Sequence record: PX969468.1
Reading direction: 5' to 3' (one strand)
Length of the DNA stretch: 64,000 nt
From: a phage
Part shown: piece by piece, positions 2,730 through 64,000 of the stretch
Position numbering within the stretch: the first letter of the stretch is position 1
Layout of the letters: each line of letters begins with the position of its first letter
The notes under the pieces: model-generated
Database searches by the model: none
What the model was told of the DNA's origin: nothing
The model's input: the letters and a program-made list of their open reading frames with translations, nothing else
Made by a program: the position numbers and the translations under genes

Positions 2730-4220
2730 GTGGCTAAGTATGGATTGACAGAGGCTGGTTTCGTTATACCAACCCTAAATGACCTAATCGTTGAAACTAA
2801 GCAAAGCCTGATCCGTGCTTTTGGCGAAAACTTCAACGTACAGAGTAACTCCGTTGCAGATAAGCTGACCACTATCTTCAACGAGCGAGAGTATCAACTT
2901 ATTCTTATGGCAGCATCTGTATACGCATCGCAGACGCTGTATGGGGCAGAAGGTATTTACCTGGATGAGCTTCTTGGAAGACAGGGTATTTACCGAAGAG
3001 GCCGTTCTAAATCATCAGGTACCTGCCAGTTGACAATCAACACAACTGTGCCGTACAATATGATTTATGATTCCAAAACTTATACGCTGGACAGTGGCAA
3101 CTTTGTTCTTAGCAACGATGTGCAGGTGGCGGGAAATCTTATTGCTCACAGAATAAACGCTCCAGACCTAAGAATTGGGAAATACAACTTTCAAATTACC
3201 AACCAGACAGACGGAAGTATCAAAACAAAAAGTTTGGTTTTAACAGATAAGGCTCTGGACTCTTCTGATTTGCCAAGCTTTTACGGCGAGATTAAGCAAT
3301 TCATTGTCGATAATACAACCCTGCTGAATGATGATTTAATTCAGATAGATATGTTGACAGGGACGTTGTGGATAGGGTACAATTCGAATCTTGATCAGGT
3401 TGGACTTAATAGCAGGGTAGATTTCAGAGTATCCCCGATTGTAGGGGAAAGAACTATCACCCTAGATGTTATCGCTAACGAGGCTGGTGAGCTGTCAAGA
3501 GAGGCAGAAACCGTGACAACAATGTCACCTACTCCCAGCGGATTTATCAAGCTTACCAACCGAGAAAGATTCAATGAGGGTAGGGATGTTGAGAAAGACT
3601 CTGAGTATCGCTTAAGAGCTTCCAGCACTAAACAGCTGACATCTAAAGCTACCCGTCCTGCAATCCTTAGCGCTGTAAGCGAGGTGAAAGGTGTTGAAAA
3701 AGTAAGAGTGTTCTCTAACAACACCGATAAAACGGATGTGAAAGGTATACCACCTTATAAGTTTCAAGTGGTGGTGTTTGGTGGTGCAACAGAGGATATC
3801 TGTCAGGCGCTGTATCAAACCATAGCTTGCACAAACAGAACTTATGGGAATATCTTCTACGATATTACCACATCAGACGGTCAGACTGAAAGGATTTATT
3901 ACTCCAAGGCAAATACCTACCGCCTAGATGTAAGAATTACCTACTCAGGTGCTGCGCTTTCCACAACCGAAAAAGATGCCATTGTAGAGGCTCTTTTGCA
4001 GGTTGTTAACGGACTGGATGTTGCAGATACGTTGTACAATATCCAATTGGTTGGTGCTGCATCGGCTGCTGTGTCAATAGGCAGATTTAACAGACTTGTA
4101 ATTCAAGTCAAACCTGTGGGGGCCTCTGATGAAGCTTACACTACAAACGATATTGTTGCAAACATGACTGAGGTGTTTGACCTAGACGAAAGTAATATAA
4201 CTTTCCAACAAACTATTTAA
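2730..4220 (+). CDS. Virion structural protein (tail/baseplate region), function unassigned
   Basis: 496-aa ORF, GGAGG RBS, GTG start; sits inside tail-fibre module. Confidence 0.6.
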   Translation: MAKYGLTEAGFVIPTLNDLIVETKQSLIRAFGENFNVQSNSVADKLTTIFNEREYQLILMAASVYASQTLYGAEGIYLDELLGRQGIYRRGRSKSSGTCQLTINTTVPYNMIYDSKTYTLDSGNFVLSNDVQVAGNLIAHRINAPDLRIGKYNFQITNQTDGSIKTKSLVLTDKALDSSDLPSFYGEIKQFIVDNTTLLNDDLIQIDMLTGTLWIGYNSNLDQVGLNSRVDFRVSPIVGERTITLDVIANEAGELSREAETVTTMSPTPSGFIKLTNRERFNEGRDVEKDSEYRLRASSTKQLTSKATRPAILSAVSEVKGVEKVRVFSNNTDKTDVKGIPPYKFQVVVFGGATEDICQALYQTIACTNRTYGNIFYDITTSDGQTERIYYSKANTYRLDVRITYSGAALSTTEKDAIVEALLQVVNGLDVADTLYNIQLVGAASAAVSIGRFNRLVIQVKPVGASDEAYTTNDIVANMTEVFDLDESNITFQQTI

Positions 4221-17820: not shown

Positions 17821-17853
17821 ATAAAAAGGGGGCCAGACGGCCCCTTTCTTTTT
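17821..17853. terminator. Bidirectional intrinsic terminator between convergent modules
   Basis: GGGGCC-AGAC-GGCCCC hairpin flanked by A-tract on one side and T-tract on the other. Confidence 0.75.
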
Positions 17854-61937: not shown

Positions 61938-62357
61938 ATGAACATTAAATCTAATAATCCGGCATATAGCTTTGATAACGCTTTTTGTCACGGTCCGGCG
62001 GCGAAAGGATTCGAAATCGATGGTAAACTAATTATTGTCAATGTTGACGGGGAAGAGGTTGCAGTATATCCGGTGGCAGACGTAAAAAGCCGTTTACAAT
62101 GCCGCATTGATGTTACCGCCTATCAGCTTGATCCGGTCCGCATAGTTGCCCTGGTCCTGGAAGAAGAAATTAAAGCCATGCACCATAGCAACAGATTTAT
62201 TGGTGACGCGCAGGATAATATGAAAGTATGCCGCCATAAAGTTAATGAAGTGCTTAAAGAGTACGGCTATAAAGATCTTATGATCAAACGTGAGGAAAAA
62301 TTCCGCTACCGTAACGACCTGGCAAATCGAATCTATGAAATATACGAATCATTATAA
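61938..62357 (+). CDS. Early-region protein (139 aa)
   Basis: promoter TTGACA-N17-TATATT at 61861-61889, RBS AGAGG. Confidence 0.55.
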   Translation: MNIKSNNPAYSFDNAFCHGPAAKGFEIDGKLIIVNVDGEEVAVYPVADVKSRLQCRIDVTAYQLDPVRIVALVLEEEIKAMHHSNRFIGDAQDNMKVCRHKVNEVLKEYGYKDLMIKREEKFRYRNDLANRIYEIYESL

Positions 62358-62376
62358 TTTCTTAACTAAACTATCA

Positions 62377-62403
62377 GGGGCTTTAAAAGGCCCCTTTCTT
62401 TTT
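62377..62403 (+). terminator. Intrinsic terminator closing the small-gene block
   Basis: GGGGCT-TTAAAA-GGCCCC followed by TTTCTTTTTG. Confidence 0.7.
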
Positions 62404-63020
62404 GTCTGTATTTCTCCTACCACAAACGGCCCAGCCTGGCAAGTGGAATAATTGACTAGCCATCAATCCCACACACTGTACAAATATACATGGAAAATAA
62501 CTATTGCATAATCTTTCATTGTGTGGTAGCAGGGACATTTTTACCCGTTTTCTCTCCCAAAAGTGCACGTAATGCCGCTATTGCACAAATTTTAACCTGA
62601 TGCACATCTCCAATATCTTGTCAACAACTAAAAATCTTTATAAGTCATACACTTACACAACATCGAAAGCGTGTCCTACGCGAAAAATCGAGTATAACTA
62701 TAGCCGCCAAATCTCAGAATTCACGTACGCACGCCATTCTATAGCCTGCAAAGTATTTATTCCAACCACAGAATAACGGAATAGTCAATACCTGCATAAA
62801 ATAATTATTCGTGTAAACTGCATAACATAAATCCGCTCAGGTGTCAACATTTTTCGTAAACAGTCCGAAATTATCACGATGAGTTATCATAAACAAAGAA
62901 ATCTTTAGTCGTCTAATGTTTACTGTACATTACTATACTGACTGGAATCATTAGATGACTAAGAGAAAGATAAGGAATAATTAACAATGTAAGTATTTTA
63001 CCTGCAACAATAAGGCAACT

Positions 63021-63040
63021 ATGCAAACGAATGGCATGGC
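63021..63040. repeat. 20-bp direct repeat, copy 1
   Basis: ATGCAAACGAATGGCATGGC; second copy at 63325-63344 with one mismatch. Confidence 0.7.
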
Positions 63041-63053
63041 GCGACGGAGTCGC

Positions 63054-63205
63054 GACATAATATAAAAGCAGTAACAATCACCCCCGTGATAGTTTTTCTG
63101 CAATCTATTATTCAGATCATAGTTGCCTTGTATCCAGTTAATCATGACATAATAAGCAAGGCAACTATAGATCTGATAATAGTTGCCCTGCTTTTATATT
63201 ATGTC
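63054..63205. repeat. Perfect 18-bp inverted repeat pair enclosing AAGGCAACTAT sites
   Basis: GACATAATATAAAAGCAG (63054-63071) and CTGCTTTTATATTATGTC (63188-63205); four AAGGCAACTAT-like copies between 63011 and 63190 in both orientations. Confidence 0.75.
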
Positions 63206-63256
63206 ATAGAAACGCCCGAAGGGGTGACCTAGTCACCTGGCATAGCCAGCGAAAGA

Positions 63257-63320
63257 TTATTAACTTGTTAATCGTCAGCTTGTTGGCTGTTAGCTTGTCA
63301 ATTGTTAACTTGTTAATTGT
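63257..63320. repeat. Iteron array 1 (4 x about 15 bp, TTAACTTGTTAAT-like)
   Basis: TTAACTTGTTAATCG, TCAGCTTGTTGGCTG, TTAGCTTGTCAATTG, TTAACTTGTTAATTG in tandem. Confidence 0.7.
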
Positions 63321-63324
63321 TTTC

Positions 63325-63344
63325 ATGCAAACGAATGTCATGGC
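63325..63344. repeat. 20-bp direct repeat, copy 2
   Basis: ATGCAAACGAATGTCATGGC. Confidence 0.7.
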
Positions 63345-63356
63345 TTATCATATCTG

Positions 63357-63432
63357 TGTAAACTGTCAAGGTGTAAACTATCCAGGCGTAAACAGTCTAT
63401 GCGGGAACAATCTATACGTGAACAGTGAAACA
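63357..63432. repeat. Iteron array 2 (5 x about 15 bp, GTAAAC-N3-TC-like)
   Basis: GTGTAAACTGTCAAG, GTGTAAACTATCCAG, GCGTAAACAGTCTAT, GGGAACAATCTATAC, GTGAACAGTGAAACA. Confidence 0.7.
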
Positions 63433-63453
63433 TGAAATAATAACAGTCGTTAT

Positions 63454-63545
63454 TGTGTCGAAAGTGTATAAAGTGTCAGATTATGGCATATTGTGTGACA
63501 TTGTGTCAAAGGTAAAAGTGTCAAAAGTGGCAAAAGTGTCAGACA
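63454..63545. repeat. Iteron array 3 (about 8 x 10 bp, AAGTGTCA-like)
   Basis: TTGTGTCGAA, AAGTGTATAA, AAGTGTCAGA, TTGTGTGACA, TTGTGTCAAA, AAGTGTCAAA, AAGTGGCAAA, AAGTGTCAGA at about 10-bp period. Confidence 0.7.
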
Positions 63546-64000
63546 AGTTTTTCTCCTCTTTGTCAAGTGCTGCATGAAAAATTTACAAACTGGTATGGTA
63601 GCATTTTTGCGGCCCTGTTTACATTCAGGAGTGTATGTATAACCCTTGTTGTGTGGGCGTTTAGACGTCTGGACGGTCAGAAGTCCGCAGGTTAATATCT
63701 AATCTATTGGTCGCTAACTATATCCCCCACAAATAATAAGAAATGCAATTGTTATGTGCGTAAACAGTGACTCATGTTATCAATCCCTGTATGTATCGCC
63801 AGTGGTGCGCATAATGGGTATTATGTTAAATTGCCCGTAATGATAACTATTCTCACAATGATAGGTATTCTCATTCAACCCCGCAAAACAGGTTGCAAAT
63901 GTTGTGCCACTGTGTGAACGGCCTCACCTATTAATCTGCCTCACTGCCCCGATATTTGAGAATTGTTATAAGAATGAGAAGTATTCCCATTTCGTCCGCC

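Follow-up and report, generated by a model that had tools for sequence, protein, structure and literature searches.

A conserved, terminator-like quasi-palindrome near the terminal repeat of rV5-like Vequintavirus genomes

The window (the whole stretch of DNA analysed, 64,000 nucleotides of phage sequence record PX969468.1) is rV5-like Vequintavirus DNA. Phages of this type are in wide use in typing, biocontrol and therapy collections. The right end of the window, position 64000, is a physical end of the genome, and the virion DNA is linear and terminally redundant. The records of EdH4, HdK5, YN3 and ECP2309, from at least three laboratories, begin at the nucleotide of window position 64000, each with two copies of the repeat, and EdH4 1-459 equals EdH4 135573-136031, corresponding to window 64000-63542; the rV5-like genome has fixed ends and a short direct terminal repeat. 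Korf et al. gave the terminal redundancies as 458 bp (PMC6563267), whereas circular permutation has been claimed for such phages by other groups (PMC3606486; PMC8407724), which conflicts with fixed ends. The 2- to 2.6-kb gene-free tract of rV5-like phages has so far been labelled just "non-coding," and the genome is treated as circularly permuted in most records. This tract is the genome-end region, with the 459-bp terminal repeat. It is the largest gene-free tract of the genome, its local GC content is low (0.34), and the gene blocks on either side of it converge. Its main parts are as follows.

62376 to 62395, plus strand: intrinsic terminator closing the last plus-strand gene block (8-bp stem with 5 GC pairs, then TTCTTTTTGT)
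62400 to 63207, no strand: conserved non-coding block without indels, with the palindrome at its right end (alignment of 19 relatives)
63209 to 63256, no strand: variable module of three mini-hairpins (CCC-GAA-GGG, GGTGAC-CTA-GTCACC, CTGGC-ATA-GCCAG), outside the conserved core
63256 to 63541, no strand: hypervariable zone of short tandem arrays (TTGTTAAC, GTAAAC and GTGTCA types; tandem-repeat scan), between palindrome and terminal repeat
63542 to 64000, no strand: right-end copy of the 459-bp direct terminal repeat (EdH4 record and Korf et al.)

The left gene block has its own terminator at 62376 (hairpin, −12.8 kcal/mol; annotated in Murica, Alma and EdH4), about 700 bp upstream of the palindrome. 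Column identity in the 62400-63207 block is 85 to 99% with zero indels in the 19 aligned relatives, and conservation ends at 63207. A hidden gene was rejected there: neither codon periodicity nor a conserved open reading frame was found, and the 48-amino-acid frame at 63086-63232 is frameshifted in L004. A large structured noncoding RNA was likewise rejected, the lower minus-strand alifold energy over 62400-63207 having vanished under column-shuffle controls; structure in 62400-62880 was not significant on either strand (column-shuffle z, −2 to +1.7). Rfam gave nothing credible in the window (best E value, 0.087, with scores well short of the gathering thresholds), no hit in the other lineages reached a gathering score, and the tRNA/tmRNA search returned none. 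The sequence GCGACACTATA bears what we take to be a resemblance to an SP6-type promoter. That reading was dropped, as a related genus is reported to have no RNA polymerase gene (PMC7344957). To the right, the mini-hairpin module is single copy in 55 of about 120 records, missing or truncated in L001, L004, L005, L007, L036 and L048, and in L004 found inverted at a different intergenic site. The hypervariable zone is gapped and variable among relatives; it contains a right 20-bp direct repeat (63325-63344) and a GTGTC array (63455-63540) that adjoins the terminal-repeat boundary. Copy number in the tandem arrays is hypervariable, and they are deleted in V18.

The palindrome (63054-63205) lies 337 bp inward of the terminal-repeat boundary, outside the repeat and 800 to 950 bp from the genome end. 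It and its immediate left flank comprise the following features.

63012 to 63022, plus strand: box A, a lone extra AAGGCAACTAT able to pair with box B; invariant in relatives
63021 to 63040, plus strand: left 20-bp direct repeat ATGCAAACGAATGGCATGGC, one border of a 304-bp unit (repeat scan; the FV3 junction lies inside it)
63037 to 63057, plus strand: TGGCGCGAC-GGAGTC-GCGACA, a conserved motif just 5′ of the left arm, containing a mini-hairpin (63040-63054)
63054 to 63071, no strand: left 18-bp arm, A-rich on the plus strand and CUGC plus UUUUAUAUUAU on the minus strand; invariant in 19 genomes
63072 to 63098, minus strand: side hairpin, a 27-nt insertion in half-unit U1, on the left side only, with no right counterpart
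63099 to 63130, no strand: hairpin T1 (degenerate box E, GATC-containing loop, box B; U1/U4 decomposition)
63131 to 63156, no strand: central loop of decayed A/T tracts, with a third GACATAAT copy at 63146
63154 to 63193, no strand: hairpin T2 (box C paired with box D, 15-bp stem, 10-nt loop with GATC), with A-rich and T-rich tracts at its sides; bidirectional-terminator-like
63188 to 63205, no strand: right 18-bp arm, on the plus strand a CTGC clamp plus an TTTTATATTAT tract

The perfect 18-bp arms 116 bp apart that opened the preliminary description are there as it gave them, GACATAATATAAAAGCAG (63054-63071) and CTGCTTTTATATTATGTC (63188-63205). They form the longest perfect inverted repeat with a gap of at most 300 nt in the 64-kb window (runner-up, 13 bp); in 60 Markov-simulated 64-kb sequences the mean maximum arm was 12 bp and never exceeded 15 bp. 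The 12-bp inverted repeat with a 26-nt spacer (63119-63130/63157-63168) is equally real. All four AAGGCAACTAT-like copies exist, at 63012-63022 (plus), 63119-63129 (minus), 63158-63168 (plus) and 63179-63189 (minus, 1 mismatch), the two minus-strand copies having been placed one nucleotide off (63120 and 63180), and the CGCGAC-GGA-GTCGCG mini-hairpin exists at 63040-63054, not 63041-63055. The nesting of these repeats had been noticed, but it was overlooked that they compose one 152-bp quasi-palindrome (63054-63205) and not four protein sites. Its stems are the outer 18 bp and an inner imperfect stem of about 31 bp (63099-63130/63157-63187) around the loop at 63131-63156, and its folding z-scores are −9.65 (RNA, plus strand), −8.39 (RNA, minus strand) and −9.94 (DNA). 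Read another way, it consists of four alternating copies of a half-unit of about 40 nt (U1 to U4), which fold as two hairpins in a row; the A-rich and T-rich tracts at their outer edges are the 18-bp arms. T1 carries a direct repeat shared with 63165-63190, and its bulged nucleotide differs among relatives. Tandem duplication of a module ([A-rich tract][GCAG-GGCAACTAT stem][loop][stem][T-rich tract]) best explains this layout, as part of an overall explanation that we hold tentatively.

Both arms are invariant in 19 aligned relatives, while the loops, one bulge and the central loop vary; the central loop is the seat of most point variation and holds a 33-bp insert after 63152 in 5 phages. The stretch 63006-63075 has 1 variable site. 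Among about 120 records the element is absent only from FV3, and it is otherwise single copy at the same locus. In FV3 a 304-bp deletion between the 20-bp direct repeats at 63021 and 63325 removes the whole unit, and A5-4 has a comparable direct-repeat pair on both sides of its unit. FV3 is an isolated phage despite the loss; a deletion of this kind, spanning a strong hairpin and bounded by direct repeats, could have been produced artificially by PCR or sequencing.

Homologous perfect inverted repeats occupy the same position in three other lineages, the A5-4 group (A5-4/UPEC06/LTH01), Seunavirus and Avunavirus (PVP-SE1, EspYZU15 and Av-05/TH18 being the further genomes). Counted from a manual alignment, since MAFFT put a 2-nt arm indel in the wrong place, 9 of the 20 arm positions have changed compensatorily among 5 arm variants in four lineages, with no mismatch and no G:T pair. 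A single-copy palindrome has therefore stayed perfectly complementary in four lineages of the subfamily while its sequence drifted, and the earlier suggestion of a cruciform- or hairpin-prone element holds in the sense that compensatory changes, without wobble, keep the arms complementary across lineages. Template-switch homogenisation (PMC8604942) could maintain such complementarity instead of selection. The GC-rich motif beside the inverted repeat is 86 to 97% identical even though BLAST no longer detects similarity in the DNA around it: a homologue of 63037-63057, GGCGCGA(C/G)CGTAG(G/C)GAGCGACAC, is found in A5-4, PVP-SE1, EspYZU15, Av-05 and TH18, and this motif folds as a hairpin in Vequintavirus only. 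A motif scan of IMG/VR for more lineages returned only the two Vequintavirus contigs already known, and a metagenome scan for box A with the direct repeat gave 8 loci, of which 5 were fortuitous matches to GC-rich bacterial DNA.

These comparisons bear directly on the idea that the segment is a small non-autonomous insertion, a miniature transposable element with the 18-bp arms as terminal inverted repeats. Perfect arms of terminal type, small size and a sharp homology break at the right arm edge would fit it. However, there is one copy in the window and per genome, the position is fixed and orthologous in four lineages (other genera included), the left edge shows no homology break, and the flanks (ending in GGAGTCGC, ...GTCGC, on the left and beginning with ATAGAAAC, ATAGA, on the right) carry no target-site duplication. 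No relative lacks precisely 63054-63205, the presence or absence of which had been put forward as a check. Conservation does stop exactly at the right arm edge, where several independent deletion variants start right after ...GTCAT, and the homology break arises because independent deletions stop at a constrained boundary. We regard the transposon as effectively refuted. A recombination hotspot or integron-like site at the right arm was also rejected, the varied junctions being deletion variants of one ancestral sequence, as was an invertible segment, the palindrome interior having the same orientation in all 19 genomes.

A multi-site operator for a dimeric DNA-binding protein had also been proposed. 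Such a protein, from phage or host, would bind GGCAACTAT-N10-ATAGTTGCC palindromes, the 18-bp arms or both, and form a DNA loop. Boxes and arms are indeed invariant among variable spacers, the paired sites stand 21 and 60 bp apart centre to centre, and the motif is local and significantly over-represented (9 matches at ≤1 mismatch against 1.4 expected). Exact copies of the 9-mer GGCAACTAT number 5 in the 64 kb, always inside 62142-63187, and with this purely local distribution a genome-wide operator or promoter motif was rejected. The boxes, however, are the stems of two duplicated hairpins and are missing from sister lineages that retain the outer inverted repeat. One half-site is degenerate, with an inserted base that varies, a change compatible with a hairpin and not with a duplex site; the sites are not overlapped by any conserved sigma-70 promoter, the candidate −35 lying within the variable loop; and the variable inner parts of the arms are still complementary, more than protein recognition alone requires. 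Paired boxes elsewhere in IMG/VR are ordinary hairpin terminators: GGCAACTAT-N6-14-ATAGTTGCC had 24 matches against about 10 by chance (a rough estimate), all but the two Vequintavirus contigs being unrelated hairpin terminators. The operator is accordingly a very improbable reading.

Terminator-like features are plain on both strands. T2 folds at −17.7 kcal/mol on the plus strand (z, −4.0) and −22.5 kcal/mol on the minus strand (z, −5.4), so that on each a stable GC-containing hairpin precedes a U-rich tract: UUAUAUUAU on the plus strand, and on the minus strand AUUAUGUCAU (weak) and then the side hairpin and CUGC-UUUUAUAUUAU. Its flanks, ACATAATAA upstream and TTTTATATT downstream, mirror each other as A-rich and T-rich tracts. 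T2 is annotated as a terminator in two GenBank records, Murica and Alma, independently. The side hairpin with its clamp (63068-63071/63099-63102) is a minus-strand terminator-like hairpin preceding the left-arm U-tract; the terminator scan calls a minus-strand terminator there in Murica (L006, 2605 to 2583). It is more stable on the minus strand (−12.8 against −9.3 kcal/mol) yet weak (minus-strand z, −1.1 to −1.9). At the two imperfect stem positions the minus strand has G.U where the plus strand has A.C or C.A, and each hairpin is stabler on the minus strand. A generic bidirectional-terminator scan of the 64 kb found only 3 sites: 17826, 54649 (intergenic) and T2. The first, at the window's other convergent junction, is presumably the gene 26/27 bidirectional terminator reported by the rV5 authors. 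It (17826-17847) likewise has an A-rich tract, a GC-containing hairpin and a T-rich tract, gives a hairpin and then a U-tract on both strands, and sits between converging gene blocks. It is a compact hairpin, whereas the palindrome is a tandem duplicate whose interior measures 116 nt, is separated by about 700 bp from the nearest gene (already equipped with a terminator), is nearly invariant, and has outer arms homologous to non-U-tract inverted repeats in other genera.

Our best explanation, possible though held at somewhat less than even confidence, is that the palindrome is a set of back-to-back bidirectional intrinsic terminators that fences off the terminal-repeat region and was built on an older DNA-level signal of the genome end. 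On this view the two hairpins, with the A-rich and T-rich arms, are Rho-independent terminators set back to back. RNA coming from the left would end at T2 and the right arm (CUGC-UUUUAUAUUAU), and RNA coming from the right at T2 and next at the side hairpin and left arm, likewise CUGC-UUUUAUAUUAU on the minus strand. Leftward RNA could come, for example, from a strong conserved promoter reading over the terminal repeat after end-to-end joining of genomes, and a conserved predicted leftward promoter, TTGACA-N16-TGATAAAAT, does face the palindrome. Termination in both directions would thus insulate the terminal repeat and the repeat arrays from the gene blocks that converge on them. The older layer would be the perfect inverted repeat with the adjoining GGCGCGAC...GCGACA motif, a core that, judged from sequence, is probably a DNA-level signal of the genome-end region. 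The sequence comparisons establish how the palindrome is built, how it is conserved and covaries, where it lies with respect to the terminus and that it resembles a terminator; actual termination and the role of the older core are inferred. Of the readings considered, the likeliest is that the palindrome stops transcription both ways, with a possible further role in marking the end of the genome for DNA processing.

In this tract bidirectional terminators were expected by the rV5 authors, who found none (PMC3606486); if the palindrome terminates transcription, it supplies the one they missed. In the literature searched, no earlier description of the palindrome and no transcriptome of an rV5-like phage was found, the sole candidate for the latter being from an unrelated Kagunavirus. 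Termination is not the conserved function of the inverted repeat, because the Seunavirus and Avunavirus arms (PVP-SE1, EspYZU15, Av-05) are not U-tracts and the A5-4 signals are weak (local hairpin z, −1.2 and −1.95, with a weak U-tract signal as well); terminator features are not retained in the orthologous elements of related genera. The invariance of the palindrome is also far above what a terminator needs. In practical terms, the region is unsuited to disruption or to use as an arbitrary genome start in phage engineering and annotation.

The same hairpins and arms could instead belong to two fully overlapping convergent small RNA genes giving antisense RNAs of about 130 nt, each arm serving as a −10 on one strand (TGACATAAT, minus strand, 63206-63198) and as a terminator U-tract for the opposite transcript. 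An extended −10-like TGnCATAAT lies at the right arm in all 19 Vequintavirus sequences, terminator-like hairpins stand at both far ends, and an accessory open reading frame at 62142 contains a 12-nt match to box D. But no −35 accompanies the −10-like hexamers, the left arm is without TG, the hexamers are not conserved in other genera, and Rfam has no match. The absence of G.U pairs from the outer stem argues against constraint at the RNA level, and we consider such genes highly improbable.

A constraint on DNA is compatible with the palindrome being part of a lytic replication origin or a priming site, at which hairpins on both strands would load a primosome or primase-helicase beside iteron-like arrays. 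Inverted single-strand initiation sites in RSF1010 oriV and palindromes in lambdoid and herpesvirus origins are parallels. The arms end in GTC or GTGTC, a T7 primase recognition sequence. The rV5 genome encodes a T7 gp4-like primase-helicase, and its authors, who sought an origin, listed a skew change at 104425-105475, beside this tract (PMC3606486). The site also lies in the largest gene-free tract, with several short tandem-repeat families adjoining and a GC of 0.34, and the DNA-level covariation would suit it. Against it, the tract has 0 DnaA boxes, 0 IHF sites and no 60-nt stretch of at least 80% AT, and GATC is depleted; the arrays are hypervariable and are deleted in V18, as the palindrome is in FV3; and the flanking gene blocks converge and do not diverge. 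GTGTC enrichment is inconsistent across lineages, and a cluster of T7-type primase sites was rejected because it is enriched only in this window's array and not consistently elsewhere. An origin is thus unlikely.

The main rival to the terminator explanation, less probable than not by a clear distance but to be taken seriously, is a putative signal in the DNA itself by which concatemers are processed or packaged. Terminase or a structure-specific nuclease would recognise the perfect inverted repeat, along with its conserved flanking motif, in the form of a cruciform, a snap-back hairpin or two protein sites in inverted orientation, while unit genomes with the duplicated 459-bp terminal repeat are cut from concatemers. 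The hairpin-forming inverted repeat of T7 and the terminal inverted repeats of N4, described below, are the parallels. The location fits, 337 bp inward of the right terminal repeat in a genome whose ends are fixed: a hairpin-forming inverted repeat conserved among relatives does lie a few hundred base pairs inside the terminal repeat. The element is single copy, conserved in the sampled lineages and next to the GC-rich motif, and its arms are all Watson-Crick, with no G:T, as would be expected of a constraint on both DNA strands. Mapped ends again show the motif (G/A)TGTC found at the arm ends: the terminal repeat begins one nucleotide after ...AAAAGTGTCA, and ...TTATAGTGTC, a repeat of arm type, closes two Seunavirus assemblies made independently, although contig ends are suggestive only. 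However, FV3 is without the entire unit, which argues against strict essentiality if its sequence is correct; the circular permutation reported elsewhere (PMC3606486; PMC8407724) speaks against such a signal; and the Vequintavirus cut sites, 63542 and 64000, are not at the arms.

A sharper version, which we rate as doubtful, is that the palindrome and GGCGCGAC...GCGACA form the cis site that starts terminal-repeat duplication and cutting in rV5-like myoviruses; terminase or a structure-specific nuclease would recognise a cruciform or snap-back hairpin, and Vequintavirus would couple this to termination of a transcript crossing the concatemer junction. If so, no end-processing signal would have been defined earlier for this subfamily of myoviruses with terminal redundancy, and the making of direct terminal repeats would become experimentally tractable. 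The generation of terminally repeated genomes is acknowledged as poorly understood (PMC13595956).

Three systems offer comparisons. The untranslated injection-stop (iss) region of T5, with eight ordered DnaA boxes (bioRxiv 10.1101/866236), is similarly a large, conserved, gene-free near-end region with many direct and inverted repeats and palindromes kept across a phage group; the present tract has no DnaA boxes, and two-step injection is not known for rV5-like phages. At N4 termini, direct repeats some 500 bp long are accompanied by inverted repeats, and the 3′ ends prime as hairpins (PMC3896407); the likeness lies in short terminal repeats of similar size and in inverted repeats near the ends proposed as DNA hairpins. 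The N4 repeats are at the very ends, whereas the palindrome is 800 to 950 bp inward and outside the repeat. T7, like the present phage, has a linear genome ending in a short direct repeat, with an imperfect palindrome some hundreds of base pairs inward of the right-end copy and transcription signals beside the junction. A hairpin-forming inverted repeat of T7 is reported to lie to the left of the terminal repeat, at a distance of about 190 bp (Chung, Nardone and Hinkle, 1990), and an RNA polymerase pause site at the junction is said to be linked to packaging (Zhang and Studier, 2004). The present phage differs in that it is a myovirus using the host RNA polymerase, one relative (FV3) does without the element, and the repeat is 459 bp against 160 bp in T7.

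The window derives from an rV5-like Vequintavirus. Its 152-bp quasi-palindrome (63054-63205, here the element) is located between converging gene blocks, in a tract of ~2.6 kb without genes; the rV5 paper shows this tract as a "non-coding" box, and its authors expected bidirectional terminators there, but found none (PMC3606486). In a conservation profile of aligned relatives, 62400-63207 was conserved without indels, its right limit coinciding exactly with the right arm's outer edge; 63207-63540 was hypervariable, with short tandem arrays, and conservation returned at 63541. Neither codon periodicity nor a conserved open reading frame (ORF) was found in block 62400-63207, which is thus non-coding, and alignment-shuffle controls gave no significant RNA structure in it beyond 62880-63215.

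Korf et al. linearized assemblies at the abrupt end of most reads and reported 458-bp terminal redundancies in Vequintaviruses EdH4 and HdK5 (PMC6563267). EdH4 1-459 is duplicated at 135573-136031 and maps to window 64000-63542, so that position 64000 is exactly the first nucleotide of EdH4; EdH4, HdK5, YN3, and ECP2309 (at least three laboratories) share this start nucleotide and carry two copies of the repeat. On this mapping and common start, the window end (64000) is predicted to be the physical genome end and 63542-64000 (459 bp) the right-hand copy of a direct terminal repeat, with the palindrome 337 bp inward of it. Other papers state instead that these phages are circularly permuted (PMC3606486, PMC8407724), which conflicts with fixed ends. 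Most GenBank Vequintavirus records have a collapsed terminal repeat and an arbitrarily permuted start.

The 18-bp arms claimed in a preliminary description (63054-63071/63188-63205) are perfectly complementary and form the longest perfect short-range inverted repeat (IR) in the window (runner-up, 13 bp); in simulated sequences (n = 60), the longest arm never exceeded 15 bp. That description also listed a 12-bp IR with a 26-nt spacer, which was recovered, four copies of AAGGCAACTAT, all present but two displaced by one nucleotide, and a mini-hairpin, which is real but sits at 63040-63054. The 64-kb window contains five exact copies of the 9-mer GGCAACTAT, none of them outside 62142-63187. Folding united these repeats in one 152-nt quasi-palindrome (z-score of about −9 for the RNA of both strands and for DNA). 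Local alignment gave a simpler account: a half-unit of ~40 nt, composed of ATGACATAATATAAAA, GCAG-GGCAACTAT, and TATCAGATC, found four times in alternating orientation.

Features of the tract and the element
62376-62395, clean terminator closing the left gene block
63012, box A, a lone AAGGCAACTAT copy extra to the duplicated modules
63054-63071/63188-63205, outer stem of the quasi-palindrome, 18 bp (folding)
63072-63098, side hairpin, left half only, 27 nt (folding)
63099-63130/63157-63187, imperfect inner stem, ~31 bp (folding)
26 nt, central loop of the quasi-palindrome (folding)
63054-63118, + strand, half-unit U1, broken by the 27-nt side hairpin
63144-63174, + strand, half-unit U2
63210->63169, − strand, half-unit U3
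63151->63112, − strand, half-unit U4, degenerate

Because the half-unit recurs in this way, the element is one complete hairpin module duplicated in tandem, giving hairpins T1 (63099-63130) and T2 (63154-63193), with perfection kept solely in the outermost A-rich and T-rich tracts, the 18-bp arms. The 1.6-kb tract is poor in GATC, with 2 sites versus ~8 expected, and both (63115 and 63170) fall within the apical loops of T1 and T2. Within an accessory 139-amino-acid ORF (61938-62357; present in rV5, isim, and Murica and absent from SYGMH1, HMD-6, FV3, and Alma), 62141-62153 repeats 12 nt of box D (CAGGGCAACTAT, − strand), which may be a chance match or an RNA-RNA pairing target. Ninety base pairs left of the element is a separate, nearly invariant IR (62905-62962; TTAGTCGTCTAATG ... 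CATTAGATGACTAA; arms of ~14 bp, 22-nt spacer) with significant consensus structure (z = −2.5 and −4.1).

The element is present in ~120 GenBank records at 83-97% identity. Among 19 aligned sequences, both arms were invariant, as were the boxes apart from one uncompensated change in V18; 63006-63075 held one variable site, whereas 27% of columns varied in the block around it. Variable positions were the hairpin loops, one bulged base, and the central loop, which in five phages also contains a 33-bp insertion. The element is missing only from FV3, where 304 bp are lost and a 20-bp direct repeat (63021/63325) forms the junction; this loss could be an artifact of a polymerase jump across the hairpin between direct repeats. 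Sequence after the right arm differs among genomes as independent deletion variants, all starting right after ...GTCAT, as expected if selection acts against deletions reaching the arm. The earlier suggestion of a small non-autonomous insertion (MITE) is refuted.

Beyond the genus, to which the GGCAACTAT boxes are restricted, the A5-4/UPEC06 lineage was reached through a flanking protein; BLAST found no DNA similarity there, but the architecture matches (18-bp direct-repeat pair, motif TGGCGCGAC...GCGACA, and perfect 16-bp IR GACACTATAAAACGAG/CTCGTTTTATAGTGTC). Searching with this unit yielded a match of 36 nt in both Seunavirus and Avunavirus, each of which has a perfect 18-21-bp IR in the equivalent tract, beginning at GACAC with arms 136-188 bp apart. 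Among five arm variants, both arms differed together at 9 of 20 positions, and neither a mismatch nor a G:T pair was present (e.g., PVP-SE1 GAGAG/CTCTC versus EspYZU15 GAGGG/CCCTC). Homologous regions in other lineages are likewise dense nested-hairpin clusters (z = −4.3 to −10).

T2 (−17.7 kcal/mol on the + strand, −22.5 on the −) is flanked by A-rich and T-rich tracts, is annotated as a terminator in two GenBank records, and was one of only three sites in a generic bidirectional-terminator scan of the whole window, alongside the other convergent junction's terminator and one intergenic site. In Murica, the scan tool called the side hairpin plus left arm a − strand terminator. The two imperfect stem positions are mismatches on the + strand and G.U on the −, and each of the two hairpins has its greater stability on the − strand. 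A strong, conserved predicted promoter near the tract's other edge points leftward toward the element. We therefore favor, tentatively, a reading of the element as predicted back-to-back bidirectional terminators, which would insulate the terminal-repeat region. Termination leaves several features unexplained: Seunavirus and Avunavirus have arms that are not U-tracts, A5-4 shows only weak terminator signals, and the invariance of the element far exceeds a terminator's need.

This predicted promoter, ~800 bp past the window's right end (4295->4268 in the Murica locus L006; 5421->5394 in L002), is of sigma-70 type (TTGACA-N16-TGATAAAAT, 11/12 with TG), strong, and conserved; being near the other genome end and directed outward over the terminal repeat, it would give long transcripts only from circular or concatemeric DNA. 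A near-consensus site at 63509->63480 (− strand; TTGACA-N18-CATAAT with TG), in the hypervariable zone, is probably lineage specific or fortuitous, since most relatives lack it.

In T7, a hairpin-forming repeat lies left of the terminal repeat. The main rival to the terminator reading, a concatemer-processing or packaging signal, has this precedent and is less likely; it is suggested by a cross-genus motif, strictly Watson-Crick arms, and proximity to the terminal repeat. The motif, GC-rich, single-copy, and conserved across genera beside the IR, suggests sequence-specific recognition. The perfect arms point either to a constraint acting on the two strands of the DNA or to homogenization by template switching (PMC8604942). 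Two further points favor the rival: the arm-end motif is seen again at the repeat boundary (...GTGTCA|GACAAG), and ...TTATAGTGTC ends two independent Seunavirus contigs. N4 terminal repeats are a second precedent (PMC3896407). How such terminally repeated genomes are generated is described as poorly understood in a 2026 review (PMC13595956).

DnaA boxes, IHF sites, and an AT-rich unwinding element are all absent from the tract, which makes an origin of host type unlikely; an origin or priming site specific to the phage is improbable. The sister lineages lend no support to an operator, which is highly improbable, or to a convergent sRNA pair, marginally more so. Literature searches found no earlier description of the element, which best fits the description of a composite bidirectional terminator and/or a terminus-proximal palindrome, both known kinds.

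Independent Seunavirus assemblies of SalP219 (L060/L061) and SEW_6S (L062/L063; Seunavirus-like but labeled Demerecviridae in GenBank) share an end nucleotide, ...GTGTTATAGTGTC|GCGAGG, with end overlaps of 127 and 91 nt; SalP219 lacks a 92-bp segment between two direct arm-motif copies. A mini-insert of 33-35 bp, TAAACTC(R)GG..CATAGCC(Y)TCGTCTC(R)AGG(R)TGT, has zero copies in the window and two alternative positions depending on the phage, a pattern suggestive of a very small module that moves or recombines.

Positions of the mini-insert
Palindrome central loop (after 63152), rV5 locus L009 2647-2679; also loci L042, L043, L044, and L047
After the TTGTTAAC array (after ~63321), L002 ~3914-3948

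A ~48-bp module of three mini-hairpins with 3-nt loops (63209-63256) lies right of the palindrome in 55 of ~120 genomes; in an IMG/VR contig (L004 9719-9762) it is inverted and 100% identical in an ordinary intergenic spacer ~2 kb away. Three short tandem-array families fill 63256-63541 (15-bp TTGTTAAC type, 15-bp GTGTAAAC type, and 9-bp GTGTCAAAA type), differing in copy number and sequence even between phages >90% identical and mostly missing from V18; in Avunavirus the TTGTTAAC core also occurs as an inverted pair, and the window holds one inverted copy of it at 62981. The sequences of eighteen GenBank "Campylobacter phage" records (MG0656xx, e.g., L042 and L043) are those of ordinary E. 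coli-type Vequintaviruses, probably mislabeled or contaminant genomes; both records checked (2/18) are flagged UNVERIFIED.
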